This document shows, piece after piece, positions 1-44,319 of a stretch of DNA of 64,000 nt (position 1 is the first letter of the stretch; every line of letters begins with the position of its first letter). Under the pieces are notes generated by a model that had not been told where the DNA came from, did not search any database, and saw nothing but the letters and a program-made list of their open reading frames with translations. The stretch comes from Trypanosoma brucei (Eukaryota). The translations under genes and the position numbers were made by a program. The stretch spans positions 384,001 to 448,000 of the forward strand of contig CP000066.1 of assembly GCA_000002445.1 (NCBI GenBank), given 5' to 3'.

Positions 1-804
1 ACAGGGTCAAACACATGCTACCGGAAAGCAGGCTAGCCTATACCCACTCCCTTTCATAGACAGACAACTTTTTTTCTGGAACAAGTCCAGTTGCGCCATC
101 ATTTTAAGCGTTGAACGTAGTGGCTGCCATCGTACGGGTGCGCGGGGCCGTAGGTGCACACACCTTTCGGCCACATATGTCTACTTCAATTGAGGCTATG
201 ACGTTGCTTAACGCTAAGGTGAAATGACAACTCTACGTGAATAGGTGCTTTTATTTCAAACATGACCTAATAGTTACGAAATACATAACATTCTTTGATA
301 ACACAGCGGATTATTCACCACCCAACCACTATCACCTTGTCTTCTCGTATTTTCTCTCGCCCTTTCATTCCAGCACACTTACGAACTGGTATTTTCCACG
401 CTTCTTCTCATTTTTTTTGCATGCCCACACGGTCCTTAAAGTTCACAAATTTTAGTTTGTAACCCGCCTTCTAAATGATAGAAGTTGTTGTGACAAAAGC
501 GTAAGAGGTCGCCGAATACACATATCAACGCAGACGAAGCCACGACAAAAAAATTAAAAGGCACGCATAAAGCGACATATGTTATCCATAAGTACTAACA
601 CATTGGGTAACAACACCCCGAGGCATCGCATCTTCAACAAAAATGTAAAACAAATGATCATTAGCCACACTTTTACAGCGCCGAAATGTTATCTGCTTTT
701 CTTGTAAACCCCAAACCTCCCAAACATATTTAAAAAAAATTTAGCACAATTCTGATTTGTAACTTTTTCTTACCTCCGCTAAACCTACCTCTTTTAGCAC
801 CCAT

Positions 805-3800
805 CGATTAAGTACCTAGCATCTCCCTATGTTTACTTTTTGTTTGACATCTTTTAGCTAGCGGTCGACTTCGCATTACTACTTCACCCACTGCGGCGTT
901 AGGTCTGTTCGCGCTGGCAACAGTGATGCCCCCGGCACCTTCTGATTTAGTTGCATTGTTACGTGCCATGGTTTCAGCCGACGCATACCTTTAAACCTTG
1001 CTGTTTGGATTTCTGTGTGCCGCATCGGAGGGAGGCAGCGCTTCCTTTTCTACATCGTCGGGCCTAAACAACTTTACCAAGAAAATTTCCACATCTACGC
1101 GAAGCCGTTAACCTCTTTTCTCTGGTCTAATCAAGCCACATTATCCACTTAGTGCTCAGGGGCTATTCATTGTAGTAAGTGTGTGGGAGTTTCCACTCAC
1201 CCTACTCTTAGAGCGTCACAGCAGCCCTCTATTTTGTGCCCACGCCAGTGCTACAAGTTCTCGATGAGGGTACCTTGTTCCATACATTTTGTCGGGTGGT
1301 GCGTGCATTGGAGATTCTTTGGAACCGTTTTCAATGTCAGGAACGCTCCGCTTCTCAATCTCTTCCCATTCAATTTTTATCTGGGTGTTTGTTCCCATAA
1401 AGTAGAGTACCCCCCGCCACATCAATGCGCTCGGCTGCACCTTCAATAGAGTAATTGGCTCCGACGCCAAGACCACGTGGCCAGTGCCGTAAAGGTCTTC
1501 CGTTCGCCCGTAGGACCTGATTAAAGTTGAAAAGACGTCCAAATGCGTTGCGTTGGTGTGTGGAATAACGTGGCGACGAAAAGTGGTAACTTCAACAGAA
1601 GGTAGCGGCTTTCAGTGAAGGCTCTTTTTCCAAAGCGTCGTTGACACCTCACCCGCCAGTGAGGTAAGTGGCCGCTAATTTTACACCCATGGGGTTTCCT
1701 CAACTGGCAAAGCCCATTCTCTAAGGTTGAGCTTCCTGTGGCCTCGTCTGCTCGCAGGTGAAATTTATGCAGTTTTATTCTTCACTAACTGTTTGATTTT
1801 CCGCGTGGTGTAAAGTGGGCAACAAAAACGAGGGGGTATTATTGTAGGCATCAAGCAATCCTAAGGGTGTACTTCCTTCGGAGTGGACTCAAATTCTTTA
1901 CAACCAAGAGCCCTACCAATTAAAAAGAAGGTGCAAGCAAGAAACCTCACTGCGCGTACAAAAGTAAACAAAAGAGGTGAATAATAACGGCCGAATACTG
2001 TAAAAAAAAACTAATGCGGAACAGTTGTGTGTGTTGTGGTTTGATCAATGTTATTCGCAGCCTCGGGCTCCCACCAAAAAACTAAGACTTGTAGGAGAGT
2101 GGTGTGTGACAACCAAGCTTGGGTGTTCTTGCAGTCAGTCAGAAAGTGGTGGTTATTTTTCAATTATAACAATGAGCACTATAACTGTACTAAGGAACTT
2201 TAGAAAACAGACACGAAGAGTCTTGCCACTAGCAGTACCGTTGAGTTGGAGTCAAAGTTAAATTAGGAGCGGTTTCCAGTTCCCTGCAGACCACCAGAGT
2301 TAACACCAACCTCTTCTTCAGCATCTTTCAAAGTTCGCCACCGCTGGAGTGTCAGCAATTGCGCTTTAAATATCACCTCTCGACCATGTGGTGTTCTATG
2401 CGAGAAGTGATGTGGCTACCACAAACTTTGTGCCTTTTGTGTTCATTTCCATGGACCTCCCTAGAGTTCCATCAAGTAGCCCACCTGCATTCAATGTTTC
2501 ACTAACTGCATACTACAGTGGTGTACGCGGCATTCTAGCAACAGCCTTCCTCAGTCAGTCGTGTCTCACCTCGAGGTGTTTAATCTTGTGACGGCTACTT
2601 GGCGATGGTCTCTAAGTTCTTTGGCCGTAATGCACCTTATATTTGTGTCACTGACAGAATTCTCAAACCCACTATCTGTTGTGCGTTCCGCTAACCGCTG
2701 TAACGACCTATTGGCTTCTCCCACTTCCGCAGATGGGTCCTTCGTTTCTAGGAGATTGATTCGTAGCATCGTCTGCGTTCTTGTATGTCCTCCCTTCCTT
2801 TGCAAACACCCCCACCCTGTAACCCCCATACCCATCACCCTCATGTTCTTTTTGTTCACCTTACTCTCCTGTCCACCTATCTGTATCACCGGACTGTTGT
2901 TGTATCTCTACTCCAAAACATGCAACACTGTTCCACGTAACTTTCGCAATTTTCCTCACTACACAAATTTCCACGAACTCCTTAAACCTCCGAAAGCGAC
3001 GAATCGGCCCCACTTTGGTGATATCCCCCTCAACCTTGTCAAGTATCCCCCTGCTCTTCCCTTGTGATGCGGTTGTTGAAAACGACTAATACACACAAAA
3101 CTCCCAGTGTACTCCATCCTACCACAAAAAAAAAACATATAGTTGCATCCTCCATCGCCTGTTACCAACATTTGATTTCCGATTATTTTTTGTATGCGCA
3201 GCATAAAGTTCCTTAAATTACCCTCACACCATGATATTTATAGTGGTTAACAACAGTCTCTCTCCTATCGATAAAGGGGTGAACCAGCCGCTTTGCACAC
3301 ACTTTGTGCCCGGCTACATCTTTTTGTCTCTAAGGTGAGGGCATTTTCCCGTGAATTTATGATTTCACCGCATTTTTTTCCTCCAAATTTCTGCCAACTC
3401 TGTATTGAAACAACTGAACTCATTCTATCAAATATTCCGTTAATTCTTGAGCACATCAGCACACACTCTCGAAAACCCGGTGAATGCTGCGACAAAACCT
3501 CCATCGGAGCGATCACGCTTTAGACAGAAATGCAATTCCTGAGAACATTACCGATAAAACGTGTAACCATCCGCACTACATTCAACTCTACACTTTTCTG
3601 GGAGTCTTTACCACACACCTTTATCCCTTCTATTCACTTAAGGTGTTAAATCTAATTTACTCAATACCTATTTCAAGGGATTGTCAATTCCATCTTGTTA
3701 AAAAAGGGACAAACCAGCTTGGAAGGAGTTTTCCTTTCTATTCCGCATTCTTTCACTTCACGGGATACTGAGAGTATTGTTCAGTCAATATTATTGAAAA

Positions 3801-5567
3801 AAAAATGTCAACACACTGCTGTAGCAAAAAAAAAAAAGAAAGCATAACTTGAGTGATATTTGAATCACATCACGTCGCTTACTATATGAATTTCCCATTT
3901 ACATTTGCTATCCTCTAATTCACATCCCTCCCCTGCCTTGAATCCACTAGTGTTTACCTGTTGTTGACGTTACCATCGTTAAACGTCAGAAGAGCCTTTT
4001 TTGGAATCACGCCCGTGCTCATTCTGACGTTGCTTTCCTTTTCTCTTAGTTTCCCGTCTTACCTGATATTTGCCAATTCAAACCAGGTTTTACTTAATTT
4101 TTGGCATTGCCAATTTTCCTGTTTGACTCTTCAAACTCTTTTTGTAGCTTTTCAATGGCATCTGCGAGCGTTCTCTTATCATTCTCGTAGTCTTTCAGAT
4201 CCCTCATTTCGTTGAAAACTTTTAACAACTCCCTCATCCACGGTATATTCTTAATATCTCTGTTCCTACCCCTAACCACGTAGCGCACACGGTGGCCAGG
4301 GGCTTCTTGGGGCAGAATCCAGAGCCGCCAGAAGCTGAACTTTCTCCTATCACCAAAGACATAGGTAGTTCCGGTACATCCATCAACACCGTGGTTAATC
4401 ATGTCGCGGAAGTCGTTTACTAGTTTGTTAAACCCTTCTTGTGGGCCTTCCATACTTGAGCACTGTTCTTTGAGAAAATACCACCTTTCCCCCGCGTCTT
4501 CATCTGGTCTCCACACCGCCCTATTATCTCCCCTAGCGCAACGACTACAGCAGAGCTGAGTTTCTCTTCCCAAATTCATACGAGGCGCGCACAAACACAA
4601 CAAATCCCTACTCAATGATACGGACGCTTTAAGCTTTTGTGAACGTGAGAGTTGCTGCTCACATACCTGTCTCCTGTCGGAACTGCGTGCTTTAATTTCT
4701 TGTGGTCGATATGGAACACCATACAGCGCGCGATTAATACCTTTTTCGAGATCACTTGCTTTCAAAACCCATCTCCGATTTTTGGTTATATTTTGGAATA
4801 TCTGCGCAACGGAAAGAACCTTTTTTCTAATCTCCACCACTTCACGTTCGGACAATCCTCCTACCGAAAGTAGGGTTGTATTTCCCCTAGTTGCCAATTC
4901 TTTTTTCGATTCATTCCAAAACACTTTGTGGAGTGCACAGTTTCTTTTCCCCGCGCCTTCGCAAGTTTTGTTCAAATCCCTGTCTCCACTCATTTCCAAA
5001 TACATTGCTCCAATTCGAGCCGCCCCTTTAGTGATTTCCTGTGCTTCTTTCATCTTTCCAAGTGCTGCTTCTGCCAAATTTATCATGCCACACAATGTCT
5101 TAAACTCATCCCCGTTAACTATCCGCCGATCACCCGAGACAGTTGCCGGGAATACCAGCGCAAGCAAAACAGTGCAAAGATTTATAGCGCGCATTCTCTC
5201 CCTTCACTTCAATCAACAACTTCACCTCTTAAAAATACACAAGAAGATCATATAAAAATGCGAATGCATACCCCACATGCACCTTTGAATAAGTTATAGG
5301 AGTTGATAGAAAGGTAAATATACTACAAGTCAAATACCAACATTTGATGGATGTGCTTCTAAAAGTAAAAAAAGACTTAAGTAGTGTTAGATGGCAGTTT
5401 ACAAAAGTGGAGGTAAGTGTCCTTGGTGCCAAATCGACGCATGCTCTGGCATTTCATTTGGACCTTGATTTCTGCTGTAGGGAGGTTGCATCACTTCCGT
5501 AAATCTTGGGCTTATCCACTGTAGAAATAACCTATGACACTTTATACTTCCGAAGAATTAACTTTTT
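805..5567. repeat. Tandem segmental duplication, unit 1 (~4.76 kb). It carries one surface/secreted-protein gene plus ~3.3 kb of 3' flank.
   Basis: Direct alignment by eye. 805-5567 matches 6874-11636 at an offset of 6068-6069 bp with near identity; examples are 811 'gtacctagcatctccctatgtttac' = 6880, and ORF 1183..1449 = ORF 7251..7517 with 100% protein identity. The left boundary is at ~805/6874 and the right boundary at ~5567/11636, where the flanks diverge. Confidence 0.9.
4094..5194 (-). CDS. Secreted/surface glycoprotein-like protein, family member A (366 aa). It has an N-terminal signal peptide and many N-glycosylation sequons.
   Basis: Long intact ORF. The N-terminus MRAINLCTVLLALVFPATVSG is a hydrophobic signal-peptide-like segment followed by a mature region. 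It shares motifs with two paralogs (NG[DN]EFKTLCG, D[LI]LCLC[AK]P, IPW[ML][RK]xL). Several NxT/S sequons are present (NKT, NES, NTT, NIT). The C-terminus has no hydrophobic tail, so a GPI anchor is not supported. Confidence 0.7.
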   Translation of the reverse strand: MRAINLCTVLLALVFPATVSGDRRIVNGDEFKTLCGMINLAEAALGKMKEAQEITKGAARIGAMYLEMSGDRDLNKTCEGAGKRNCALHKVFWNESKKELATRGNTTLLSVGGLSEREVVEIRKKVLSVAQIFQNITKNRRWVLKASDLEKGINRALYGVPYRPQEIKARSSDRRQVCEQQLSRSQKLKASVSLSRDLLCLCAPRMNLGRETQLCCSRCARGDNRAVWRPDEDAGERWYFLKEQCSSMEGPQEGFNKLVNDFRDMINHGVDGCTGTTYVFGDRRKFSFWRLWILPQEAPGHRVRYVVRGRNRDIKNIPWMRELLKVFNEMRDLKDYENDKRTLADAIEKLQKEFEESNRKIGNAKN

Positions 5568-6873
5568 TCATTGTTATTTTCTTTGAGGAACACAGAAAAT
5601 CTGTACGAAGGTGGTTTTGAGTTGGGCTTTTGTTTTCACCAGTTTCTTCTGCATTTCGCATCCACAAAGTTTTGCAGACTCTACTTTGGTTGCCTGTTAT
5701 TTCGTTTGCCTTAGTAGTTGCATTTTTTTCTTTCAGTTTTGGCATACATAAACAAACGCCGTTACTGGTGCCGTCGTAAATTAAGCAAAGGCGGTGCCGC
5801 AACGTAAATTTGCCCGAACATTGGCGAGTGCCCAGTTCTTCATCTCCTCTAAACGAGCGGGAAATCTCATTCTGACTTGACCTCTGCGGTTTGTGTTTCT
5901 CCAAAGGAACCGCTCATACATCTGACACATCTAAAAACGCAAGTTTCAATGCAACACCACTATGTTTTCGGCAGTCTCTGTCATTCAAAAATTATTATCC
6001 CCATAGCAACCATTCAATCTTCCAATTATTTTCCACAAACCCGACTGTGACATTAAGAATTATCGTGCGCTTTCCAGTTGAGATGACGTGCACATAGGAG
6101 AGACAAATTCAAAAGATAGAGTAAAAATGTTAAAGTTAAGTTTGCTAATAAAGCGATATCGTTTTTGAACCATCGGGTAGTCACATTTTTGATGGTTAGG
6201 TTAACAAAATGCTGTTTTTACAGGAAAACATCAGAGTTGTCCGTGACGTGTCTTAATCAGTTACGTCGCTGAATTCCAAGCTACTAAGAGCGGTCCCGCG
6301 TTAATTTTTCCAGATCTTAAACCGCTAAATGTATCATTTTCTAGTTAACCTCAAGTTCTGATGCATTTTCACGCAGGAGCCTGCACCCAAAATTGTAATT
6401 CGAGGCTACGTTACAAAACACCACCTAAAACGCACAATTACAACTCTTCATCTCCAGCACTTGGACGTGCGCATCGCACACAATGACCACCTGCCTTCTT
6501 TGAACTCAATCTGATGCAGAAAAAAAGCGCATCTCCCCTCTCCGACAGCGAAAAAAGCATGCATGCACCCACAATCGCCACGAAAATAGTTTCCCCTCTC
6601 ACCATAAAATCTTCCAATAATCCTTAATCTACCTAAAAAAATATAAGAACAGAGTAAGTGACCACGTATAGAATCATTCCCAATCAAACCGTTCACTACG
6701 AGCAAGACTATGTCATATGCCGATCACTTGATCCGCACATTTCATCAAGCTTGCCACGTACTGTCTTTATCCCATTAGCTACTAATCATCGGTTTTATTA
6801 CCTATTTCCCACCAATCCCGCACGTCCACCAATAAGAGCAATTTACATTTTACGCAGTACGCCAGTGCTCCTC

Positions 6874-9800
6874 GATTAAGTACCTAGCATCTCCCTATGT
6901 TTACTTTTTGTTTGACATCTTTTAGCTAGCGGTCGACTTCGCATTACTACTTCACCCACTGCGGCGTTAGGTCTGTTCGCGCTGGCAACAGTGATGCCCC
7001 CGGCACCTTCTGATTTAGTTGCATTGTTACGTGCCATGGTTTCAGCTGACGCATACCTTTAAACCTTGCTGTTTGGATTTCTGTGTGCCGCATCGGAGGG
7101 AGGCAGCGCTTCCTTTTCTACATCGTCGGGCCTAAACAACTTTACCAAGAAAATTTCCACATCTACGCGAAGCCGTTAACCTCTTTTCTCTGGTCTAATC
7201 AAGCCACATTATCCACTTAGTGCTCAGGGGCTATTCATTGTAGTAAGTGTGTGGGAGTTTCCACTCACCCTACTCTTAGAGCGTCACAGCAGCCCTCTAT
7301 TTTGTGCCCACGCCAGTGCTACAAGTTCTCGATGAGGGTACCTTGTTCCATACATTTTGTCGGGTGGTGCGTGCATTGGAGATTCTTTGGAACCGTTTTC
7401 AATGTCAGGAACGCTCCGCTTCTCAATCTCTTCCCATTCAATTTTTATCTGGGTGTTTGTTCCCATAAAGTAGAGTACCCCCCGCCACATCAATGCGCTC
7501 GGCTGCACCTTCAATAGAGTAATTGGCTCCGACGCCAAGACCACGTGGCCAGTGCCGTAAAGGTCTTCCGTTCGCCCGTAGGACCTGATTAAAGTTGAAA
7601 AGACGTCCAAATGCGTTGCGTTGGTGTGTGGAATAACGTGGCGACGAAAAGTGGTAACTTCAACAGAAGGTAGCGGCTTTCAGTGAAGGCTCTTTTTCCA
7701 AAGCGTCGTTGACACCTCACCCGCCAGTGAGGTAAGTGGCCGCTAATTTTACACCCATGGGGTTTCCTCAACTGGCAAAGCCCATTCTCTAAGGTTGAGC
7801 TTCCTGTGGCCTCGTCTGCTCGCAGGTGAAATTTATGCAGTTTTATTCTTCACTAACTGTTTGATTTTCCGCGTGGTGTAAAGTGGGCAACAAAAACGAG
7901 GGGGTATTATTGTAGGCATCAAGCAATCCTAAGGGTGTACTTCCTTCGGAGTGGACTCAAATTCTTTACAACCAAGAGCCCTACCAATTAAAAAGAAGGT
8001 GCAAGCAAGAAACCTCACTGCGCGTACAAAAGTAAACAAAAGAGGTGAATAATAACGGCCGAATACTGTAAAAAAAAACTAATGCGGAACAGTTGTGTGT
8101 GTTGTGGTTTGATCAATGTTATTCGCAGCCTCGGGCTCCCACCAAAAAACTAAGACTTGTAGGAGAGTGGTGTGTGACAACCAAGCTTGGGTGTTCTTGC
8201 AGTCAGTCAGAAAGTGGTGGTTATTTTTCAATTATAACAATGAGCACTATAACTGTACTAAGGAACTTTAGAAAACAGACACGAAGAGTCTTGCCACTAG
8301 CAGTACCGTTGAGTTGGAGTCAAAGTTAAATTAGGAGCGGTTTCCAGTTCCCTGCAGACCACCAGAGTTAACACCAACCTCTTCTTCAGCATCTTTCAAA
8401 GTTCGCCACCGCTGGAGTGTCAGCAATTGCGCTTTAAATATCACCTCTCGACCATGTGGTGTTCTATGCGAGAAGTGATGTGGCTACCACAAACTTTGTG
8501 CCTTTTGTGTTCATTTCCATGGACCTCCCTAGAGTTCCATCAAGTAGCCCACCTGCATTCAATGTTTCACTAACTGCATACTACAGTGGTGTACGCGGCA
8601 TTCTAGCAACAGCCTTCCTCAGTCAGTCGTGTCTCACCTCGAGGTGTTTAATCTTGTGACGGCTACTTGGCGATGGTCTCTAAGTTCTTTGGCCGTAATG
8701 CACCTTCCATTTGTGTCACTGACAGAATTCTCAAACCCACTATCTGTTGTGCGTTCCGCTAACCGCTGTAACGACCTATTGGCTTCTCCCACTTCCGCAG
8801 ATGGGTCCTTCGTTTCTAGGAGATTGATTCGTAGCATCGTCTGCGTTCTTGTATGTCCTCCCTTCCTTTGCAAACACCCCCACCCTGTAACCCCCATACC
8901 CATCACCCTCATGTTCTTTTTGTTCACCTTACTCTCCTGTCCACCTATCTGTATCACCGGACTGTTGTTGTATCTCTACTCCAAAACATGCAACACCGTT
9001 CCACGTAACTTTCGCAATTTTCCTCACTACACAAATTTCCACGAACTCCTTAAACCTCCGAAAGCGACGAATCGGCCCCACTTTGGTGATATCCCCCTCA
9101 ACCTTGTCAAGTATCCCCCTGCTCTTCCCTTGTGATGCGGTTGTTGAAAACGACTAATACACACAAAACTCCCAGTGTACTCCATCCTACCACAAAAAAA
9201 AACATATAGTTGCATCCTCCATCGCCTGTTACCAACATTTGATTTCCGATTATTTTTTGTATGCGCAGCATAAAGTTCCTTAAATTACCCTCACACCATG
9301 ATATTTATAGTGGTTAACAACAGTCTCTCTCCTATCGATAAAGGGGTGAACCAGCCGCTTTGCACACACTTTGTGCCCGGCTACATCTTTTTGTCTCTAA
9401 GGTGAGGGCATTTTCCCGTGAATTTATGATTTCACCGCATTTTTTTCCTCCAAATTTCTGCCAACTCTGTATTGAAACAACTGAACTCATTCTATCAAAT
9501 ATTCCGTTAATTCTTGAGCACATCAGCACACACTCTCGAAAACCCGGTGAATGCTGCGACAAAACCTCCATCGGAGCGATCACGCTTTAGACAGAAATGC
9601 AATTCCTGAGAACATTACCGATAAAACGTGTAACCATCCGCACTACATTCAACTCTACACTTTTCTGGGAGTCTTTACCACACACCTTTATCCCTTCTAT
9701 TCACTTAAGGTGTTAAATCTAATTTACTCAATACCTATTTCAAGGGATTGTCAATTCCATCTTGTTAAAAAAGGGACAAACCAGCTTGGAAGGAGTTTTC

Positions 9801-11636
9801 CTTTCTATTCCGCATTCTTTCACTTCACGGGATACTGAGAGTATTGTTCAGTCAATATTATTGAAAAAAAAATGTCAACACACTGCTGTAGCAAAAAAAA
9901 AAAAAAGAAAGCATAACTTGAGTGATATTTGAATCACATCACGTCGCTTACTATATGAATTTCCCATTTACATTTGCTATCCTCTAATTCACATCCCTCC
10001 CCTGCCTTGAATCCACTAGTGTTTACCTGTTGTTGACGTTACCATCGTTAAACGTCAGAAGAGCCTTTTTTGGAATCACGCCCGTGCTCATTCTGACGTT
10101 GCTTTCCTTTTCTCTTAGTTTCCCGTCTTACCTGATATTTGCCAATTCAAACCAGGTTTTACTTAATTTTTGGCATTGCCAATTTTCCTGTTTGACTCTT
10201 CAAACTCTTTTTGTAGCTTTTCAATGGCATCTGCGAGCGTTCTCTTATCATTCTCGTAGTCTTTCAGATCCCTCATTTCGTTGAAAACTTTTAACAACTC
10301 CCTCATCCACGGTATATTCTTAATATCTCTGTTCCTACCCCTAACCACGTAGCGCACACGGTGACCTGCGAGACTGTGTGCCATGATCGGATAGCGCCAA
10401 AAGCTGAATCCAACCCCACCCCCCAAAGTATATGCCGTCCCTCTGCATTCATCTTCACCGCCGTACGTAGCCTTGCGAAAGTTGTCCACCAGTTTGTTAA
10501 ACCCTTCTTGTGGGCCTTCCATACTTGAGCACTGCTTTTTAAGGAAGTGCCATCTTCCAGTTGCATTCTTATTTGTTTCCCACATACCTTCATTTTGATT
10601 CCTAACACACTCTTTGCAGCAAAGATGGGCTTTCCATCCCAAATTCATACGAGGCGCGCACAAACACAACAAATCCCTACTCAATGATACGGACGCTTTA
10701 AGCTTTTGTGAACGTGAGAGTTGCTGCTCACATACCTGTCTCCTGTCGGAACTGCGTGCTTTAATTTCTTGTGGTCGATATGGAACACCATACAGCGCGC
10801 GATTAATACCTTTTTCGAGATCACTTGCTTTCAAAACCCATCTCCGATTTTTGGTTATATTTTGGAATATCTGCGCAACGGAAAGAACCTTTTTTCTAAT
10901 CTCCACCACTTCACGTTCGGACAATCCTCCTACCGAAAGTAGGGTTGTATTTCCCCTAGTTGCCAATTCTTTTTTCGATTCATTCCAAAACACTTTGTGG
11001 AGTGCACAGTTTCTTTTCCCCGCGCCTTCGCAAGTTTTGTTCAAATCCCTGTCTCCACTCATTTCCAAATACATTGCTCCAATTCGAGCCGCCCCTTTAG
11101 TGATTTCCTGTGCTTCTTTCATCTTTCCAAGTGCTGCTTCTGCCAAATTTATCATGCCACACAATGTCTTAAACTCATTCCCGTTAACCAGCCATTCCGA
11201 ACCCGAGACAGTTGCCGGGAATACCAGCGCAAGCAAAACAGTGCAAAGATTTATAGCGCGCATTCTCTCCCTTCACTTCAATCAACAACTTCACCTCTTA
11301 AAAATACACAAGAAGATCATATAAAAATGCGAATGCATACCCCACATGCACCTTTGAATAAGTTATAGGAGTTGATAGAAAGGTAAATATACTACAAGTC
11401 AAATACCAACATTTGATGGATGTGCTTCTAAAAGTAAAAAAAGACTTAAGTAGTGTTAGATGGCAGTTTACAAAAGTGGAGGTAAGTGTCCTTGGTGCCA
11501 AATCGACGCATGCTCTGGCATTTCATTTGGACCTTGATTTCTGCTGTAGGGAGGTTGCATCACTTCCGTAAATCTTGGGCTTATCCACTGTAGAAATAAC
11601 CTATGACACTTTATACTTCCGAAGAATTAACTTTTG
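6874..11636. repeat. Tandem segmental duplication, unit 2. It is separated from unit 1 by a ~1.3 kb unique spacer.
   Basis: Same alignment as unit 1. Only scattered SNPs and homopolymer-length differences occur outside the CDS, for example A10 at 3120 vs A9 at 9190, and 2630 'ccttatattt' vs 8699 'ccttccattt'. Confidence 0.9.
10163..11263 (-). CDS. Secreted/surface glycoprotein-like protein, family member B (366 aa). It is the duplicate of member A with mosaic divergent segments.
   Basis: Same length and frame as 4094..5194. It is identical over most of its length but differs at VSGSEWLVNGNE vs VSGDRRIVNGDE, and in a ~90 aa block (NLGWKAHLCCKECVRNQNEGMWETNKNATGRWHFLKK...TYGGEDECRGTAYTLGGGVGFSFWRYPIMAHSLAGHRV vs NLGRETQLCCSRCARGDNRAVWRPDEDAGERWYFLKE...INHGVDGCTGTTYVFGDRRKFSFWRLWILPQEAPGHRV). 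Confidence 0.7.
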   Translation of the reverse strand: MRAINLCTVLLALVFPATVSGSEWLVNGNEFKTLCGMINLAEAALGKMKEAQEITKGAARIGAMYLEMSGDRDLNKTCEGAGKRNCALHKVFWNESKKELATRGNTTLLSVGGLSEREVVEIRKKVLSVAQIFQNITKNRRWVLKASDLEKGINRALYGVPYRPQEIKARSSDRRQVCEQQLSRSQKLKASVSLSRDLLCLCAPRMNLGWKAHLCCKECVRNQNEGMWETNKNATGRWHFLKKQCSSMEGPQEGFNKLVDNFRKATYGGEDECRGTAYTLGGGVGFSFWRYPIMAHSLAGHRVRYVVRGRNRDIKNIPWMRELLKVFNEMRDLKDYENDKRTLADAIEKLQKEFEESNRKIGNAKN

Positions 11637-12342
11637 TTTGTTTTTTCCCTTTATGCTAGTTGTTCCAGCCATTGCTCGACGTCTTCTATAAACTGAAGTT
11701 TACAGTTGGTGGAGTCGAGTCATTAAAAGGTTATTGAGATGTAATAATACTCTGTAGCGTGAAGCATCATCATTGAATATGAAATGAACTTCCCCAACAA
11801 CATCGACCATCTGACGCAACGCCACACACTTCACTCGAGTGCACCCCTTCACCCTCCACTTACTATCATAACGGGCGCACAAAAACAAAGACTGCAACCA
11901 AAGCCTGTCAGAACCATGATTTACGAAAATCATAAAACAGAAACTTCCACGGATAAGTTAGCATACGGCATTTACGTCTGAGCCGTCTGCCTTCGAAACT
12001 GAATATCAGCTTCCGATCTCACACAAAAACTTGGCATAAGTTTCCTGTACCAGCAGGAGCCACACAAAAATATAACAAATGCACATAAACAAAACCTCCT
12101 TCCTCCCCCTCCAGCTTTTTATTATAAATCACAATCATGTTAATATATGTAAGTATCTGCCACCACAGCGAAAACTAAAAATGTTTACATTACACCTCGC
12201 ACACCCCCCATTATATTTTATGCCATCCAAAGGGAAGCACATATTGAAACAGAAACATTTGATTAATTTTTCCGACGGTATTAAAAAAACCCATGTATCT
12301 TATCATAAATATAATAGTTTTAATATTTATATGCATATATTT

Positions 12343-13440
12343 TTAATTTAAGAGCAGTAAAAGAAGTATTTTTAAAGGGTTAGGGTTAGGGTTCCCATTT
12401 ACTGACCAAAGTGGTCGTGTTTGTGGTTCTGCGGATGTATTAGTTCCGCTTTCATTCATTAGTGGATCTTCTAGATTATATTCAGTGTTATTACCATCAT
12501 TGTGCTTGTAATTAATATTATCATTATCATTATTATTGTTATTATCATCATTAGTGCGAATGCCTTCGTTAATCTTTCGGTCCGTTGAAGGTGCGGCATC
12601 TCCAACTCCATTTGGAACGGTTTCGACGTCGTTTTCACTCGTGCCCAAATTGGTTCGTGTATCATTCGGTATTTTCTCGGCAAGTTCTTCAAGATGCTTT
12701 AACCAGGGGATGCTATGGTTGGTGAGTGTGCCGGAAGTGATGTTATACATCAAACACACCGAATTACCCTTTCCAGTGGTTGCTGAGCATTGCTTCACTT
12801 CTGTTGCCTGATGACCCCCGAGTCGTATGTTTTGATCTGATTCCCTTCCCTTCTTTTCTGTCGCTGTTCTCAGTACTGCTTGAACTTTTTCCTTTAAGTG
12901 GTATAATTGATTTTGTATATGTTGCTCCCGTTTCGGAAGTTGGTTACAATGCAACCTTATTTTCTCCCAATGCTGCTTAGCTTGCTCTTTATTGCTCCAC
13001 ACCTCACCGCCCTTGTACCACTTGTTACCGCTAAAACACAGATCTTCTGCACCAGCCCCGTTTTGGCCCTGCCTTCTGTGGGGTTTACATAGACACAAAA
13101 TATCCTTTATTAAGCTTTTCCCCGCATATTTGTGGGCTCGATTTTGCCTGTCCCCGCAGTAATCTTTCCTGTCGTTTTCGCCTTCGAAACCAATTTCGGT
13201 GCTGCCTTTGTTGCCGTACAAAATGGTATTCACGGACTCGTTAACACTTTCAGGTTTCAATCCTCCAAGTGTTGGCTTTCCTTCACTCGCCAATTTCTGT
13301 ATTTCAAACGTCAGATTGACAAATCCACATAATGTTTTAAACTCGTTTTCATTCAATATTTGTGAACCCTTCTTTCCTGCTTTTGAACTTTCCACTGTCC
13401 CAGTCAACAATACGACAATAAATGAGAAATATATCCGCAT
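12343..13440 (-). CDS. Divergent paralog C of the same secreted/surface family (365 aa), with an Asn/Asp-rich low-complexity C-terminal extension.
   Basis: It has an N-terminal signal-like segment MRIYFSFIVVLLTGTVESS, then NENEFKTLCGFVNL, DILCLCKP and IPWLKHLEEL, which match members A and B. The C-terminal ~100 aa is N/D-rich (NDDNNNNNDNDNINYKHNDGNN) and ends NPNPNPLKILLLLLLN, encoded partly by an interstitial telomere-type repeat. The true stop may lie earlier. Confidence 0.6.
   Translation of the reverse strand: MRIYFSFIVVLLTGTVESSKAGKKGSQILNENEFKTLCGFVNLTFEIQKLASEGKPTLGGLKPESVNESVNTILYGNKGSTEIGFEGENDRKDYCGDRQNRAHKYAGKSLIKDILCLCKPHRRQGQNGAGAEDLCFSGNKWYKGGEVWSNKEQAKQHWEKIRLHCNQLPKREQHIQNQLYHLKEKVQAVLRTATEKKGRESDQNIRLGGHQATEVKQCSATTGKGNSVCLMYNITSGTLTNHSIPWLKHLEELAEKIPNDTRTNLGTSENDVETVPNGVGDAAPSTDRKINEGIRTNDDNNNNNDNDNINYKHNDGNNTEYNLEDPLMNESGTNTSAEPQTRPLWSVNGNPNPNPLKILLLLLLN
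12369..12388. repeat. Interstitial telomeric hexamer repeat, (TTAGGG)3 on the plus strand and CCCTAA on the coding strand.
   Basis: Sequence 'agggttagggttagggttccc' at 12367-12390, inside the 3' end of the paralog C ORF, where it is translated as NPNPNP. Confidence 0.8.
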
Positions 13441-14621
13441 CCTTTATTTCTTTTGTCCTTTTTCGAAAAATCAAAAGTAAAAGCACAGACACACCAATTT
13501 CATAATACAAAGAAGAAAGTAAGCCAAGTTACCGATGGTGGCCTTTATTACGGAAACTAAAGTTTCCACCAGCACCGCATGTAACTTAAGCGTAATTTTT
13601 CCATTCCCCTCACAAGGGGAATCACCAATAACCAAACACACTCATTTACGCATAATATAATCTACTTCAGCATAAATGTGCAAAAATTCAATCCGTTTAT
13701 TCACTATCATTTGCACCTCCAGCACTTCGCCTAATGGGCAAACATATTCAACAACTAATAATGGTAATGCGTTTGTAGGTGACGTTTGTAAGAGTGACAT
13801 ATTATTGTACCATAATATAAAAAAAACGTGTTTTCAAGCAGATCAAAATCTATTGTGGAGAAATCTTGTGGACAACACTTTACAAATGGGGGACAACCAA
13901 CTACTATCAAAAGAATTAAAGCCCATGGAGGATATGCTACACATAATTTCATAAGAGGTACACAACATCAAGGAGGCAAAGCGATCAAATGTATGCATCC
14001 CCGTATTGAAAAGTTAAAAAAAATTAGCGGTATCAACTACAATCGAGAATAACAAAAACAACAACAAAAACATCACATCACATCGTCCCATCATTACCTT
14101 GTTTTATTGCGTTTCCCAATTATGTTTCACATTATTCTGAAAAGAATTTGCTAAAATACCTCCCCTCCCCTCCTTGCACAAAACAGTGATGAAGTTGCGG
14201 ATGCGGATAAAAGGGAATAGTGCCCAACTTTATACACATGCAACAACATGAACATTGCAACTCGAAAACCTTGTTTCTTATCGAAGGGACATGTACATGT
14301 TTGGCATGAAACAAATCGTGAAATAGCAACTAGAAACAACCCACAATGGATAAACCTTAAAATAAAATAAGTAATGAAGTAAAAGCAATAAAGAGAAGTG
14401 GTGTCACCAAATGTAAAGGGAGGGGGGGACAGACTCTCCTTTTTTGATACTGATGTATCTGTTTCATCTTCTCATTTGCTTACTGTAAGGATTATTCTTT
14501 TCATGAGGTTGGTCTTACTCCCAAACGTGTGCCTAACTAGGTTGCCGAGCTAACTTCCTTTATTGCTTGTTCCGCTTTTCAATCCACAATTTCCTCTTCA
14601 GCTGCCAGCTCACTTGATGTT

Positions 14622-14981
14622 TTATTGCGATTCCCGTTCCTCCGCATTCTTAATGCTTCTTTCCTTTTCTTCAGTCCAACCATTTGCTTCTATCATTTGT
14701 TGCGACAGACAACTACACGGGTATGTGGTAAAATCACGCGGGGATTGTTTGGCACATTCCTCTAAAGCAGTCCACATGCTTTTTGACACGTTGTTGACAC
14801 AACACCAAGTGTTTTTATCCCGTACCTTCTCAGCACAGCACATCAAATCGTCCCGCCACCGTGGGAGTAATTGCTCACATGTGGGTACTCGAAAATCATC
14901 ATCATCATCATCATTATCATCTTCATCACTTTTGGATGCCGCAACAATCGCAAACACTAGCACAAAAACCGTCTTTTTCAT
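14622..14981 (-). CDS. Small secreted acidic Cys-rich protein (~119 aa from an internal Met; the full ORF is 14622..15161).
   Basis: The ORF contains MKKTVFVLVFAIVAASKS, a signal-peptide-like segment, followed by an acidic run SDEDDNDDDDDD and 10 Cys. The upstream part of the 179-aa ORF is a Pro-rich, unlikely leader. No homolog recognised. Confidence 0.35.
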   Translation of the reverse strand: MKKTVFVLVFAIVAASKSDEDDNDDDDDDFRVPTCEQLLPRWRDDLMCCAEKVRDKNTWCCVNNVSKSMWTALEECAKQSPRDFTTYPCSCLSQQMIEANGWTEEKERSIKNAEERESQ

Positions 14982-15957
14982 TACATGGCCAATTATATAA
15001 CTCATTTTGCCTACACACTGAGATGCACTTTCAAAAAGACGAAGGCTTGTGATTGGAGGAGGAGGAGGAGAAGACTCAAAAATTAAAGAGAGAAAATATG
15101 CAAAGAAGACCATCCGGTGGTAACTCAACATGGATTTTTTCCGGCATATTATGTGCGGCAACTCTCCCTCTCTCTCTCTCTGTCATATATATATAAATCC
15201 ACGGAGTTCCCTTCAAGCCAACAAACTTGCCAAATGGAAGGTTGCCATCAAAGTGAAGAGATGAGTGAGTATCAAAAAAGAAAAAAGAAAATACAACTTG
15301 AAAGGAAGCAAACGCTCCTCTTGAAGGGAAAATCGGGGAAGATAAAAAAGAACTCACAGGAACCAACAGGTAACTCTCGGACTCCGAATACATTTAAGTA
15401 GAATTAATAACCATCGTAAAGTGTGACCGCGAGAAAATCAGCGCATAACAAATATTACTTGTGCTCAACGGAAAATATTCTTTCGGCATAACAGTTCGCT
15501 AGTATTTTAAAGCGAAGATGGAGGAGGTAAAAGAAAATTGTTCGATCAATGTATTTCGTGTTATTGTCGTGACTCGAACGAATCTTCGTCTTGGATGCAG
15601 CAAAGTGTTAGCTTCAACAGACCCAAAACCAACTAACTCACATGCGCCGAGGTGAAAGTCGTATGAGTGTGAACCGACAACGGTGGAATACAATTAAAAA
15701 AAAAGTGGATTTGCAACTGCCTTAACAACAACAAAAAAAAGATGTTTTGTAAACAAAATACCTGAGGCAGTTAACCCTCTTATGGGCCGTCAATTAAATA
15801 CCTACTTTCAACTACCACTTTTTAATTACAACAAAGCAAATTCGCCCAAACTAAATATTAGTAATGCACGAATATTCCAGAACGGAATCCGTTTCCTCCA
15901 CCCCCCCCCCTGGCTGTGGAAACTTCTCTCGCACTTAAAAACTTTTGCACTACTTGT

Positions 15958-17247
15958 TCACTCATATGGAGCAATCGGATCATTTTTGAGACCCCGCTGC
16001 GCTCTACGGAAGAGCGGCGTTAAGCAAATGCCCGCCCACACAACAAAAACAGCGCAGATTGTCCAAAATGGTATGAGTGTGCTGCCCTCGCCAGTCATAA
16101 ACGGAACTTTTAAGTTCATACCGAACAAAGATACGACAAGGTTGATGGGAAGAGAAACAGCAGCAACACTGTTCAGAATATTCATCTTGAAGTCGAGTCC
16201 TGCGGACGCCTGCGACATGCGCATAGAAACACCCGTAATGAAGTTCAGGTTTGCATGATTTAACATATCACGAGCATCATCCAGCTTCTCTGAAACCTTT
16301 TGGACTCTTGCCAGTATTTCCTTGTAGGCCACAGCACTCGGGTGACTCTTAGAAACGAACGTTAAACGCATTGCTGGTGAAATAAGCTGGTGAATCAGTT
16401 TTTCCTTCAGGAACAATGCTGTTCGAAAACTAGAAATACGGCGCCGTAACAACGCTACACGACGGAGGAGGTCTGTCTGATCCTGCTCACCAGGCGAAAT
16501 CAGAAAGACCATTTCATTAATATCACCAACCTCACTCAGCAGCGAGGCAGGTGCTGGAAAGGAGGCCTCACAAGTGAAACACACGAGAGTACATAGGGCA
16601 TCTGTTCCCATAGCAACAGGAACAAAAGAAGAACGATGTGACGAAGGATCCTTCACAATGCCAACAACCGAATCCTCGCATTCACGGCTATGTCTCTCCG
16701 CTTCACTTCCATTACATTTGAGAACATGACGAAATAACTCCGCGAGACCGGCAAACGGTGCTGTATGCAGCGTCAGTAGTACACGCTCACTACACACAAA
16801 CGAGCACAAAACCCCTTCCTCGCAACCTAACTCAGTGCGCGACATAGCGGTTGCAGCAGGAAACGGTCCGCCGTGGCTCGGGGAACACGAAAGGCAGCCA
16901 ACAACATACTCACCTTCCGTAGGTTGCAACTCCACCACGTCGTACATATCATTTGCAAGCACAGCCTCCACGTGACTCGGCTGCATGTTTGGGTAAAGCA
17001 GCTGTAAAACTTGCCGATGCTCTTCTTCACTGCACTTCTGCATGTCCACCCATAAACCACACAGTGCAATTCCCGGTAAGTTGTTGCGTAAGAAAACTAG
17101 TGCATCTGCAGCAGATTCCAAAGCACATGTTTGTAGTGACATGCGCCCTGCAGTCTGCCATGTAACGACACAAAGGCACCCGTCACGTCCCACTGGTGTG
17201 GTTACGGGAGGTGAAGCCTCTCCTTTAGTGGCACACGGCATTGCCAC
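15958..17247 (-). CDS. CorA/MRS2/ALR-family Mg2+ transporter-like protein (429 aa).
   Basis: The C-terminus carries the signature FGMNLKVPF (GMN motif) immediately before two predicted TM helices (LIPFWTICAVFVVWAGICLTPLF), preceded by a long soluble N-terminal domain. This is the canonical CorA architecture. Confidence 0.65.
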   Translation of the reverse strand: MAMPCATKGEASPPVTTPVGRDGCLCVVTWQTAGRMSLQTCALESAADALVFLRNNLPGIALCGLWVDMQKCSEEEHRQVLQLLYPNMQPSHVEAVLANDMYDVVELQPTEGEYVVGCLSCSPSHGGPFPAATAMSRTELGCEEGVLCSFVCSERVLLTLHTAPFAGLAELFRHVLKCNGSEAERHSRECEDSVVGIVKDPSSHRSSFVPVAMGTDALCTLVCFTCEASFPAPASLLSEVGDINEMVFLISPGEQDQTDLLRRVALLRRRISSFRTALFLKEKLIHQLISPAMRLTFVSKSHPSAVAYKEILARVQKVSEKLDDARDMLNHANLNFITGVSMRMSQASAGLDFKMNILNSVAAVSLPINLVVSLFGMNLKVPFMTGEGSTLIPFWTICAVFVVWAGICLTPLFRRAQRGLKNDPIAPYE

Positions 17248-31239: not shown

Positions 31240-33246
31240 TCATCTTTTCGCAGTAACGGTCCGGAGTGTACGCAAACGATTGAGGGCAGCACCAATCTCT
31301 ATGTGCCTTGTTGCTGAGGTGAACCCTCGAGGTAGATAACATGAGGGTGTTCGCAGTTCAAGTCGCTTGTCATGCTGGTGACTGCAGCATCCAGCGATCA
31401 TAGAGGAGAAATTAGAGTTAAACTTTCCTCTTTGAATCTCGCACACGCCACCTGGAGAAGGTAATTGTGTTAGCGCACCACCCTTTGTCGTCATTTCAGG
31501 CACAATCCGCGGTTCCCCGTCGTACAGCAACGCGAGGCACTGAGCTATTGCATTTACTTGCCCCTCCTCAACAATCTGTTCCACCATCGAAAGGTCAATA
31601 GTTTCCTCCGAGAATCGGATAGATTCTGTACCAATGCCACTCACTTTGGTTCCTTCCCTGCCACGTCGACGGCGCACTGTTGTGAAGGAGCCGTCAGGAT
31701 CAAAACACCGGTTCACGTCCGGTATGAACACGGAGGCGGTGTCTCCTGGAGGGTTTAGTGCCGGCAACGAGGAATTTGAGGCAATTTCTTTCGCTTCCTT
31801 TGTGCAATCAGAGATCTGGTAGGCATTCATGACGAGCACAACACGTGCCTGTGGAAAATACTGTCCGGATCCGCCAATAACCATGATGGAGGAAACCCCG
31901 TGATTCTGTGAGAGATCTGCTACGCGCTCCACGAAAGGCGTAATGGGTTCCTGGGCCCGCGGAACAAGCATTTGCATCAGCGCATCACGGTACATTAGAT
32001 TAGTGGCACAGGTGTCTTCGTCGAGTAATAGTAACTGCGAACCCAACTCCAAAGCCTCCATGATGTTAGCTGCTTGACTTGTGCTCCCACTGGCGTCGGC
32101 TGTTACGAAGAAATTAGTGGTCTTCCCAAAAGGAAGATTGTTGATGAAGGGTGAAATATCCACGCCGTGAACCGAGCGCCTGTCCTCCGCACGGATTTTA
32201 ACAGCTGTTGGGTCCACCACAACATAGGTCCGACCGTCATCAGGCACGTGGTTATATATTCCCACCTCCAGAGCGCGCAGAAGCGTTGACTTGCCGTGAA
32301 AACCGCCACCCGCTATGAGGGTAAGCCCCGGTGGGAGGCCCATGCCAGTGATTGTTTTGCCACTGTGTGGTAGGGTGAATGAGCACTCAAGTGATTTGGG
32401 TGATTGAAATGGCACCGCATTATCTCGCAACGGCTTGTCGCTGTTACCGGCATCACGCGGAAGAATCGCACCGTTTGCAACGAAGGCAACATACCCGGCG
32501 CCCAGAAGGTTGGAGCGAAGTACCTCTTGGTCATGTACGCATATGACGTGTTGGTGGAGATCTTCTTCGTTCAGCCCGACGACGCATTGTTCAAGGAGCG
32601 GGACGAGTTCATTGTAAAATATGTCGATAGCACCATGCCCATCAATACGTCGACCATGCCCCGGTAGCTTTACACGAGCAAATATCTCGATTTCTGCCTG
32701 CATACCGCTTTTCTGTTGATGCGCCTTGACAAGGCCAACGGTGCTACGCTCCAGCACGTGCTGCGATGGTCGAAGCACCTGCACAGCCCCACTCGTGCGG
32801 CGCGGTATACCGTTACGATACCCAGCATGGAAGGAACGAAGAATAAAATCTTCGGCGGCAACGCGTCGGCACGGGTTCGCCGCCGCCAAATCTGTGGTTT
32901 GTAGCACCTTCTCTAAAGAAAATGTGCACGGGCACACCAAGCGCACCTGACTGCCAGGGGCAAAAGGATCAGACTGGATGGACAAAAATGTGCATCTCAC
33001 ATTTTCGGAAATTTGGTACGTCTCATTTGTGAGGGAGCGCAGTTCACCGTAATTGCGTCCCTCTACTGAATGAAAGAAATCCATTAGTGGTGAGAACCCT
33101 GTGGAACCGGAGGAAATGGCAGCTCCCTCATTATTTGAAGGCATGTGGCCACCGCGTTCCATTGGCGCATTGTTATGCCAATGGGAGTGTCCCCTTCCGC
33201 CACCTCTACCGCCACGGTAATGCCCGCCGTAGCCACGATGGTACAT
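31240..33246 (-). CDS. Predicted ABC-class ATPase fold protein (PF09818-like) with an N-terminal RGG/Gly-Arg-rich RNA-binding-type tail. It may correspond to kinetoplastid MRB1590-like mitochondrial RNA-editing accessory ATPase.
   Basis: The Walker A/P-loop GGGFHGKSTLL is embedded in LPPGLTLIAGGGFHGKSTLLRALEVGIY, followed by hhhhDE (LLLLDEDTCATN), a Walker B-like motif. The N-terminus MYHRGYGGHYRGGRGGGRGHSHWH is an RGG box. The MRB1590 link comes from recalling that it has this fold. Confidence 0.6.
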   Translation of the reverse strand: MYHRGYGGHYRGGRGGGRGHSHWHNNAPMERGGHMPSNNEGAAISSGSTGFSPLMDFFHSVEGRNYGELRSLTNETYQISENVRCTFLSIQSDPFAPGSQVRLVCPCTFSLEKVLQTTDLAAANPCRRVAAEDFILRSFHAGYRNGIPRRTSGAVQVLRPSQHVLERSTVGLVKAHQQKSGMQAEIEIFARVKLPGHGRRIDGHGAIDIFYNELVPLLEQCVVGLNEEDLHQHVICVHDQEVLRSNLLGAGYVAFVANGAILPRDAGNSDKPLRDNAVPFQSPKSLECSFTLPHSGKTITGMGLPPGLTLIAGGGFHGKSTLLRALEVGIYNHVPDDGRTYVVVDPTAVKIRAEDRRSVHGVDISPFINNLPFGKTTNFFVTADASGSTSQAANIMEALELGSQLLLLDEDTCATNLMYRDALMQMLVPRAQEPITPFVERVADLSQNHGVSSIMVIGGSGQYFPQARVVLVMNAYQISDCTKEAKEIASNSSLPALNPPGDTASVFIPDVNRCFDPDGSFTTVRRRRGREGTKVSGIGTESIRFSEETIDLSMVEQIVEEGQVNAIAQCLALLYDGEPRIVPEMTTKGGALTQLPSPGGVCEIQRGKFNSNFSSMIAGCCSHQHDKRLELRTPSCYLPRGFTSATRHIEIGAALNRLRTLRTVTAKR

Positions 33247-44061: not shown

Positions 44062-44099
44062 GTGCCCTTTTCAAATATTTAATTCTTCTTCCTCCCCCT

Positions 44100-44283
44100 C
44101 TATAGCTTGTAAGTGTTAATGTCGCATTAAATAAATAAGTGTTTTTACACATGTGTCCGTTAACGTATGGGAAAGAATAGAGGGGGGGGGAAAAAAGCAA
44201 CAAGTCTACACAAGTAAGAGCCACAAGTAGATGAAAATCAGATAGACAAACAAATGCACACGTACACAAACACACACGCACAT

Positions 44284-44319
<36 letters not shown>

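Follow-up and report, generated by a model that had tools for sequence, protein, structure and literature searches.

How can two tandem gene copies be effectively identical over 4.76 kb and yet differ at 45% of positions in three short coding segments? This question is raised by a locus on chromosome 3 of Trypanosoma brucei brucei TREU927, of which a 64,000-nt stretch (the window) was analysed. BLAST and MAFFT reveal one direct duplication in the window, its two units lying in register at an offset of 6068-6069 (Table 1), in agreement with the tandem near-identical units that an earlier note on this DNA had described, with coordinates right within 1-3 nt. Each unit carries a CDS of 366 codons, the length given there, on the minus strand. 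Outside three coding blocks, here called patches A, B and C, the units differ by 4 substitutions (979, 2639, 2640, 2929) in about 4.5 kb and by 2 homopolymer lengths (A10/A9 at 3126, A12/A14 at 3825), and the non-coding flanks diverge by about 0.1% (3.7 kb). The spacer between the units resembles neither of the outer flanks (left, 1-803; right, 11636-12342) nor the rest of the window, since self-BLAST of 1-16000 against the whole window gave no further repeats. A check of the 3.3-kb 3′ flank for hidden genes or RNAs gave no ORF >168 aa and no Rfam match (1-16000).

Table 1. Features of the duplicated locus, in window positions; copy 1 carries sequence type 1 and copy 2 sequence type 2.
Feature	Position	Strand	Remarks
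Duplication unit 1	804..5566		3290-nt 3′ flank, CDS and 372-nt 5′ flank; gene on minus strand
CDS copy 1 (type 1)	4094..5194	-	366 aa; matches XP_843744/AAZ10185 exactly, annotated 'VSG-related, putative'
Patch C, copy 1	4295..4421	-	codons 258-300; aa differences at 260-299
Identity island between patches B and C, copy 1	4422..4465	-	44 nt, 100% identical; aa 244-258
Patch B, copy 1	4466..4567	-	aa 210-243
Patch A, copy 1	5110..5131	-	aa 22-29; first residues of the mature protein, directly before helix 1
Spacer between units	5567..6871		1305 nt
Duplication unit 2	6872..11635		in register with unit 1 at +6068/6069
CDS copy 2 (type 2)	10163..11263	-	366 aa; exact match to XP_843745/AAZ10186
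Patch C, copy-2 equivalent	10364-10490		
Identity island, copy 2	10491-10534		
Patch B, copy-2 equivalent	10535-10636		
Patch A, copy-2 equivalent	11179-11200		
Third VR gene	12343..13440	-	365 aa, hydrophobic C-terminus; XP_843746, identical to XP_843741

All remaining differences between the units fall within the three patches, where 114/251 positions differ (45%) with 0 indels, and where identity falls to 50-56% in 50-nt windows. The alignment and these windows confirm the in-frame, equal-length and sharply bounded character that the patches had been given, and divergence, which on the earlier account should not be evenly spread, is concentrated in them (Fisher's exact test, p about 4e-136, conservative because the non-patch count takes in an alignment gap of 13 nt where the unit ends). 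At the protein level the two types share 15/40 residues in patch C and 13/34 in patch B, where Cys215, 216 and 219 are kept in both types and type 2 has gained the sequon N233-A-T; all 12 Cys of the protein are kept between types. The perfectly identical stretch reported between two of the patches measures 44 nt. Across the wider family this island is poorly kept (12-38% amino-acid identity), and its identity between the copies therefore reflects recent ancestry or homogenisation rather than constraint. Patch C falls where the family as a whole is hypervariable.

The genes had been called surface-protein genes, and correctly so: they belong to the trypanosome VSG family. Both match Pfam VSG_B (PF13206) over its full length (E = 1.6e-67 for copy 1 and 1.1e-62 for copy 2), the best matches in the PDB, by sequence and by fold, are the class-B VSGs mVSG1954, VSG11 and VSG3, and RefSeq lists the two copies and a third gene (XP_843746) of T. 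b. brucei TREU927 all as 'VSG-related, putative'. Copies 1 and 2 are probably Tb927.3.1500 and Tb927.3.1510, both of which stand in the VSG-related (VR) list of PMC2771046, while the third gene is probably Tb927.3.1520 (= Tb927.3.1470). Both copies end in the same hydrophilic sequence ...EESNRKIGNAKN, the VSG_B match ending at residue 349 of 366, and neither has a VSG C-terminal domain or a GPI signal; a hydrophobic tail is found only in the neighbour at 12343-13440. A 70-bp repeat array is absent upstream (TRF on 1-16000 gave just two short trinucleotide runs, 12511-12553 and 14895-14928), and the conserved VSG 3′UTR 16-mer TGATATATTTTAACAC has 0 matches in the window at <=2 mismatches. The absence of these four features excludes a canonical, antigenically variable VSG, and the proposed antigenically variable family gives way to the invariant, chromosome-internal VR class, with a class-B VSG N-terminal domain. 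In sharing that domain, a chromosome-internal site, intact ORFs and the lack of 70-bp repeats, the copies show no departure from the VR class (Marcello & Barry 2007; PMC2771046, PMC2854126, PMC3605285). VR mRNA, including that of this pair, is enriched in the bloodstream form (PMC2771046, PMC2854126, PMC3605285). In the papers searched, one of which names these gene IDs, we found no description of the two-type patch structure of the 1500/1510 pair.

Where the patches lie in the protein was approached by modelling. An AlphaFold2 model from 12 sequences, of low confidence (pLDDT 60), has helices at 28-69, 116-158 and 318-364, with N-glycan sequons within 70-115; its Foldseek matches are class-B VSGs, though weak ones (TM about 0.35). 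Class-B VSGs have their bottom lobe between helices 1 and 2 (PMC10501684), and residues 159-317 together with the N-terminus would therefore be on top. In an HMM alignment to mVSG1954 (8b3w), the top-loop Ser S321 of that protein (PMC9956791) faces residue 297, where patch C ends. The patches are thus placed, by topology, probably in the top lobe at the membrane-distal end of the protein, the chance of all 3 falling in that half being about 1 in 9.

The patches are much older than the identity around them. Over the 82 patch codons pS = 0.72 and pN = 0.38, with synonymous sites saturated, giving a dS of about 2.5 or more and a dN/dS of about 0.2, while in the 284 codons outside them dN = 0 and there are 3 synonymous differences (dS about 0), all bordering patch C. 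Patch transitions and transversions stand at 70:44 and third codon positions vary most, a pattern that fits homologous sequence long diverged under structural constraint. The islands of divergence are older than their surroundings, since their dS is at least about 2.5 while the remaining CDS has a dS of about 0 and the flanks diverge by about 0.1%. In non-coding DNA, 927 and gambiense differ on average by about 4.6% (PMC2854126), and at 0.1% the unit-wide identity is therefore far younger than the two types. The earlier note was right that this is not neutral post-duplication drift, but its suggestion of strong diversifying selection on exposed loops fails against the comparison of dN/dS between patches and remaining CDS that it had proposed. 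That diversifying selection or local hypermutation made the patches from identical copies after duplication is hardly credible: their probable top-lobe position, the sequon gained by type 2 and the overlap of patch C with the family-wide hypervariable region would suit it, but selection on amino acids is unable to saturate synonymous sites locally beside 284 codons with a dS of about 0 and 3.7 kb of flanks at about 0.1%, and type 1 is unchanged across three strains. Saturated dS effectively refutes post-duplication positive selection, and together with a dN/dS below 1 and the constancy of type 1 in 427 and EATRO1125 it leads us to reject recent diversifying selection or hypermutation.

Comparison with other strains, made on amino-acid sequences, separates the history of the patches from that of their background. 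All 82/82 patch residues of type 1 are unchanged in Lister 427 (AGH60478) and EATRO1125 (APD73613), while outside the patches these type-1 proteins depart from 927 copy 1 at 3-5 residues, including L11F, M68L and R117P, where the two 927 copies are identical. Since both 927 paralogues agree at positions 11, 68 and 117, the non-patch background seems to follow strain and the patches type, a possible signature of concerted evolution that comprises these 3 positions in type-1 orthologues only. Turnover between strains as in canonical VSGs is contradicted, since the proteins of 427, EATRO1125 and gambiense share type 1 at 98-99% identity. T. equiperdum SCU64753 carries both type-2 and type-1 B/C blocks, its patch A being itself split (SEWLVNGD), and T. 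b. gambiense CBH09787 combines a type 2 patch A with type 1 patches B and C. With both types present in other subspecies, the types are older than the split of the subspecies, and recombination reshuffles them within the identical stretches. The proteins of gambiense and equiperdum may nevertheless be artefacts, produced by consensus calling or by collapse of a repeated locus; at 6437 bp, the equiperdum contig is near one repeat period. With 2-3 samples per type, either dimorphism or a wider polymorphism would fit.

We propose, at a probability of roughly 55%, that two old alternative top-lobe cassettes have been kept while duplication or inter-copy recombination homogenises everything else. 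Tb927.3.1500 and 1510 would be tandem copies of one chromosome-internal, bloodstream-stage VSG-related gene, in which three short segments, namely the N-terminus ahead of helix 1 and, in the top-lobe insert between helices 2 and 3, two blocks, would carry the two old types within a 4.76-kb unit otherwise effectively identical, including 3.3 kb of non-coding 3′ flank. That identity could have arisen if two alleles that already existed were captured in a very recent duplication of the unit, or if unequal crossing-over and gene conversion have long kept the copies homogeneous (concerted evolution); any preference between these two routes is inference. The patches would escape homogenisation, and selection may maintain two forms of an exposed surface. 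Also or instead, 45% heterology may stop heteroduplex formation so that exchange resolves only in identical stretches, and the patch borders would therefore be sharp. Two features of the locus sit awkwardly with this proposal. The stretches 1-803, 5567-6871 and 11636-12342 are unrelated, and the arrangement is therefore not a simple product of head-to-tail unequal crossing-over. Recent homogenising of a 44-nt island amid 45%-diverged DNA is also mechanistically awkward.

An origin by import would relieve the second difficulty. Here one of two recently duplicated copies, probably that of type 2 (Tb927.3.1510), would have been repaired by segmental, template-switching gene conversion from a divergent VSG/VR member, several switches leaving three donor tracts amid untouched sequence as in mosaic VSG formation; a single multi-switch event would account for the 44-nt island without selection. 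Sharp borders, in-frame equal-length replacement and perfectly identical intervals all suit such an event, mosaic conversion is well documented in VSGs (PMC2854126, PMC2771046), and type 2 is the outlier: its patch B shares 29-38% identity with each relative, while that of type 1 reaches 50%, 47% and 41% with VR genes on other chromosomes and 38% with type 2. The nearness of type 1 patch B to VR genes of other chromosomes, which also fits an origin of type 2 from elsewhere, runs against the reading we prefer. However, no donor was found for either type. Searches of the window by blastn-short and tblastn, using each patch and both proteins, gave only reciprocal hits and chance 11-13-mers, and in a collection of 5.8e9 proteins that includes the 927, 427, EATRO1125, gambiense and equiperdum VSG/VR sets, queries with copies 1 and 2 (E <= 10) returned no donor and only their own clusters, the search covering the DNA of the window and the proteins of this collection. 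The third VR gene is excluded as a donor at 22-27% identity to the copies. The closest relatives are 34-41% identical, leaving hardly any flanking homology to recombine; both types occur in other subspecies, so the event would predate these; VR genes are reported to be orthologous between subspecies without frequent conversion (PMC2854126); and the near-identity of the remaining unit would still require homogenisation or allele capture. Import, which would have to be from an unsampled donor, is thus unlikely in our judgement, and of the earlier proposal of segmental gene conversion from family members the involvement of recombination between types stands while a family donor has so far found no support. 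Very unlikely is an assembly artefact in which the two alleles of a single-copy gene, both haplotypes, were set in tandem. Flank divergence of about 0.1% is within the allelic range, the gambiense annotation gave just one protein of the family, and the 427 and EATRO1125 VSG sets hold type 1 only; but a haplotype mis-join would not make a 1305-nt unique spacer and differing outer junctions, each CDS has its own RefSeq entry on a chromosome of 1.65 Mb whose sequence is finished, and Tb927.3.1500 and Tb927.3.1510 give different microarray signals (PMC2771046).

The gene pair neatly exemplifies an evolutionary pattern that is already known, and it reveals no new mechanism. The primate red/green opsins and RHD/RHCE are concerted tandem duplicates with divergent islands that resist gene conversion, and Teshima and Innan are said to have provided theory for such islands. 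Like these, the T. brucei copies combine near-identical coding and non-coding sequence with short divergent segments that may be under selection, sharp borders and a non-patch background that seems to follow strain rather than paralogue. They differ in that their patches are far more diverged (45% of nucleotides, saturated synonymous sites) and in that an unrelated spacer splits the units. Block dimorphism is also seen in Plasmodium falciparum MSP1, with its K1 and MAD20 types. Both systems have two deep types limited to blocks, reshuffled by recombination in the conserved blocks between and stable across isolates, but the Plasmodium types are alleles and those of T. brucei stand in tandem in one haploid reference. 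Nearer in fold is the VSG-derived, tandem transferrin-receptor pair ESAG6/ESAG7, which differs in short surface-loop segments (PMC3605285). It too is a tandem VSG-fold pair homogenised by recombination, with differences in exposed segments and an anchorless partner; ESAG6/7, however, are a-type, lie in expression sites and form a GPI+/GPI- heterodimer, while the VR copies are b-type, chromosome-internal and both anchorless. Pairing of a GPI-anchored with an anchorless protein does not apply to copies that share a hydrophilic C-terminus. Mosaic VSG formation likewise swaps short in-frame tracts inside a VSG-family N-terminal domain, but this locus is neither an expression site nor a subtelomeric array, no donor was found, and the VR types are stable across strains rather than arising during infection.

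VR proteins are among the few non-varying VSG-fold proteins, and the family has been detected on the surface of bloodstream forms (PMC4587319). A pair with two old versions of its probable outer face, homogenised elsewhere, points to the site of a functional or immunologically exposed surface and offers a natural two-allele experiment on that face. We regard as rather improbable a more specific reading, in which the top lobe faces a ligand or antibodies and is polymorphic in two old types, which balancing selection maintains and which some strains have captured in tandem. The protein would then be a surface or secreted invariant VSG-fold protein, one parasite would express both alternative heads, and the anchorless proteins might be held at the surface through class-B-type oligomerisation, possibly with the VR neighbour that bears a GPI signal; host-range variation of the transferrin receptor would be an analogue. 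The pair is also a compact case for asking how far heterology limits recombination in T. brucei outside expression sites. From 15.9 to 64 kb the ORFs all lie on one strand, with products including CorA-like, Rce1-like, Rab3GAP, kinase and MRB1590-type ATPase proteins, the gene pair standing within a housekeeping transcription unit.

Self-comparison of the window returns one direct duplication, whose units start 6068-6069 nt apart, with an unrelated 1305-nt spacer in between. The earlier note had described these units and three diverged patches within their coding sequences, and its coordinates and description proved accurate. Outside the patches, the units differ by 4 substitutions (979, 2639, 2640, and 2929) in ~4.5 kb and by 2 poly-A length differences (3126 and 3825). 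Within the patches, 114 of 251 positions differ with no gaps, a clustering far beyond chance (Fisher p ~4e-136). The 50-nt identity plot that the note had called for confines the divergence to these three blocks, where identity drops to 50-56%, while an island of 44 nt between patches B and C (4422-4465) is 100% identical in both units. Downstream of the 1.1-kb gene, each unit carries a long, non-coding 3′ flank of 3.3 kb (804-4093 and 6872-10162) that is conserved by duplication, and this flank contains no ORF above 168 aa and gives no hit to Rfam.

Features of the duplicated locus (window positions; patches in copy 1)
Feature	Position	Strand	Source
Duplication unit 1	804-5566		window self-comparison
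Duplication unit 2	6872-11635		window self-comparison
Copy 1 CDS (type 1)	4094-5194	-	
Copy 2 CDS (type 2)	10163-11263	-	
Diverged block, patch C	4295-4421		unit alignment
Diverged block, patch B	4466-4567		unit alignment
Diverged block, patch A	5110-5131		unit alignment

Each unit holds one 366-codon ORF on the minus strand. Pfam VSG_B matches both proteins end to end (E = 1.6e-67 and 1.1e-62), and an exact-sequence search matched them to XP_843744 and XP_843745, both of which are annotated 'variant surface glycoprotein (VSG)-related, putative' in T. brucei brucei TREU927 on a 1,653,225-bp chromosome record. We rejected their assignment as canonical VSGs: a tandem-repeat scan of 1-16000 found no 70-bp repeat array, the window lacks the 16-mer of VSG 3′UTRs (up to two mismatches allowed), and a C-terminal domain and GPI signal are absent from both copies, with the protein ending in ...ESNRKIGNAKN. 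The remainder of the window consists of housekeeping genes, all on the same strand. Given this context and the missing canonical features, both genes are members of the known non-variant VSG-related (VR) class (PMC2771046, PMC2854126, PMC3605285). Counting ORFs backwards from 31240-33246, which contains an MRB1590 C-terminal domain, copy 1 would be Tb927.3.1500, copy 2 Tb927.3.1510, and the neighbouring gene at 12343-13440 Tb927.3.1520, which is consistent with a published list of VR genes (PMC2771046). In that study, Tb927.3.1500 was 33-fold and Tb927.3.1510 12.5-fold higher in cultured bloodstream than in procyclic forms (PMC2771046), and VR proteins as a family are enriched in bloodstream-form surface preparations (PMC4587319). 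Within the housekeeping run, 44001-52000 is markedly low in G+C (0.32-0.40 vs 0.43-0.50 elsewhere in the run).

The 82 patch codons (aa 22-29, 210-243, and 260-299) have pS 0.72 and pN 0.38, giving a saturated dS of ~2.5 and a dN of 0.53, whereas the other 284 codons have a dN of 0 and only three synonymous differences, at codons 258, 259, and 300 on the edge of patch C. Differences between the types fall 39, 25, and 50 times at codon positions 1, 2, and 3, with a transition to transversion ratio of 70:44; patch length is unchanged, and all 12 cysteines are kept, as are several Trp and Gly residues. The patches are thus an old divergence of homologous, structurally constrained sequences. The dN/dS comparison, which the note had proposed, contradicts its suggestion of diversifying selection on exposed loops: synonymous sites are saturated in 250 nt against ~0.1% difference over the surrounding 4.5 kb, and because selection at the amino-acid level cannot produce such local saturation, we rejected diversifying selection after the duplication.

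Proteins from Lister 427 (AGH60478) and EATRO1125 (APD73613) are of type 1, with none of the 82 patch residues changed. Outside the patches, both differ from 927 copy 1 by L11F, M68L, and R117P, residues at which the two 927 paralogues agree with each other, and APD73613 has 2 further changes; the non-patch background thereby seems to track strain, and the patches type. The single protein of this family found in T. b. gambiense, CBH09787, is a recombinant that joins a type-2 patch A to type-1 patches B and C and also carries G222R; the subspecies may differ in copy number, or the assembly may have collapsed the locus. In T. equiperdum, the 467-aa model SCU64753 contains residues 200-300 twice in frame, with type-2 and then type-1 B/C, and patch A in this model is internally split (SEWLVNGD). 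The contig that carries it comes close, at 6437 bp, to the 6068-nt repeat period, and the model represents either an assembly artefact from a collapsed repeat or a genuine fused gene with both cassettes. Allowing that CBH09787 and SCU64753 come from assemblies in which the duplicated locus may be collapsed, the strain comparison suggests that both types are real and common to the subspecies, that each is stable, and that they recombine inside the identical intervals. The ~0.1% difference between the flanks, set against a mean non-coding divergence of ~4.6% between 927 and gambiense (PMC2854126), indicates that sequence identity in the remainder of the unit is much younger than the two types.

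The reading that we favour, with a probability of roughly 0.55, is that a VR protein has two old alternative cassettes at its exposed end, while the rest of the 4.76-kb unit would have been homogenised by unequal exchange or conversion between copies, or recently made identical through a duplication capturing a pair of alleles. The cassettes could persist through selection for having both forms, through their 45% heterology barring exchange inside them, or both, and either would produce sharp patch borders. Haplotype mis-assembly would be a quite improbable origin of the pattern, given the unique spacer and distinct junctions.

The main rival, which we consider possible but doubtful, would have type 2 imported through multi-switch conversion from a divergent member of the family. 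A HMMER scan across all 1.84 billion representatives gave as nearest relatives a chromosome-11 VR (XP_828487, 41% identity), Tb927.7.180 (37%), and a VSG-like protein (34%). Over patch B, the identity of type 1 to these three outgroups is 50%, 47%, and 41% vs 38% to type 2, and type 2 reaches 29-38% with everything compared, which makes type 2 the odd one out; patch C is hypervariable family-wide. Import would neatly account for the 44-nt island, where identity across the family is 12-38%, i.e., not conserved, so that constraint does not explain its identity between the units. However, the donor search urged in the note produced none for either type: the window holds no match to either beyond its partner, and copy 1 and copy 2 queries of ~5.8 billion proteins (E up to 10), including VSG/VR entries from 927, 427, EATRO1125, gambiense, and equiperdum, returned only their own clusters. 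Since the two types are older than the subspecies, import would also still call for homogenisation afterwards.

AlphaFold2 yields a weak model (pLDDT 60), in which helices are discernible at 28-69, 116-158 (broken), and 318-364. Residues 70-115 contain three of the four N-glycan sequons that the copies share; in class-B VSGs, bundle helices 1 and 2 have an N-glycan-bearing bottom lobe between them, and O-glycans are found on the top lobe (PMC10501684). Following this topology and the model helices, residues 159-317 would form a top-lobe insert and helix 1 would start at the top, placing patches B and C within the top lobe, with patch A adjoining it. The chance of all three falling in the top half of the protein is ~1 in 9. 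Profile alignment to mVSG1954 (8b3w) sets S321, a conserved top-loop Ser (PMC9956791), opposite residue 297 at the end of patch C, which is Ser in type 2 (copy 2 10373-10375) and Glu in type 1. In addition, type 2 has gained an N-glycosylation sequon, N233-A-T (copy 2 10565-10573, aa 231-233), where type 1 has D-A-G.

Both genes are already known and annotated, and the two-type pattern fits known kinds, namely concerted evolution that leaves conversion-resistant islands and the block dimorphism seen in parasite surface antigens. No published description of the two-type structure of Tb927.3.1500/1510 was found, PMC2771046 being the only one of the papers searched to name the gene IDs. The pair is a clean new example of some experimental use, while the mechanism is not new.

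The protein of the neighbouring third VR gene, Tb927.3.1520 (12343-13440, minus strand), is identical to XP_843741, which would be Tb927.3.1470. This identity suggests a second, larger duplication that brackets the 1500/1510 pair and reaches past the left window end. The Tb927.3.1520 protein contains an Asn/Asp-rich low-complexity stretch encoded by ATT/ATC repeats at 12511-12553. At the 3′ end of its CDS, a telomere-type TTAGGG x2 lies within agGGTTAGGGTTAGGGTTccc (12376-12392; exact 12-mer 12380-12391), the one match in the window against 0 expected (100 shuffles), and here the minus strand encodes ...NGNPNPNPL..., immediately before the hydrophobic tail of the protein.
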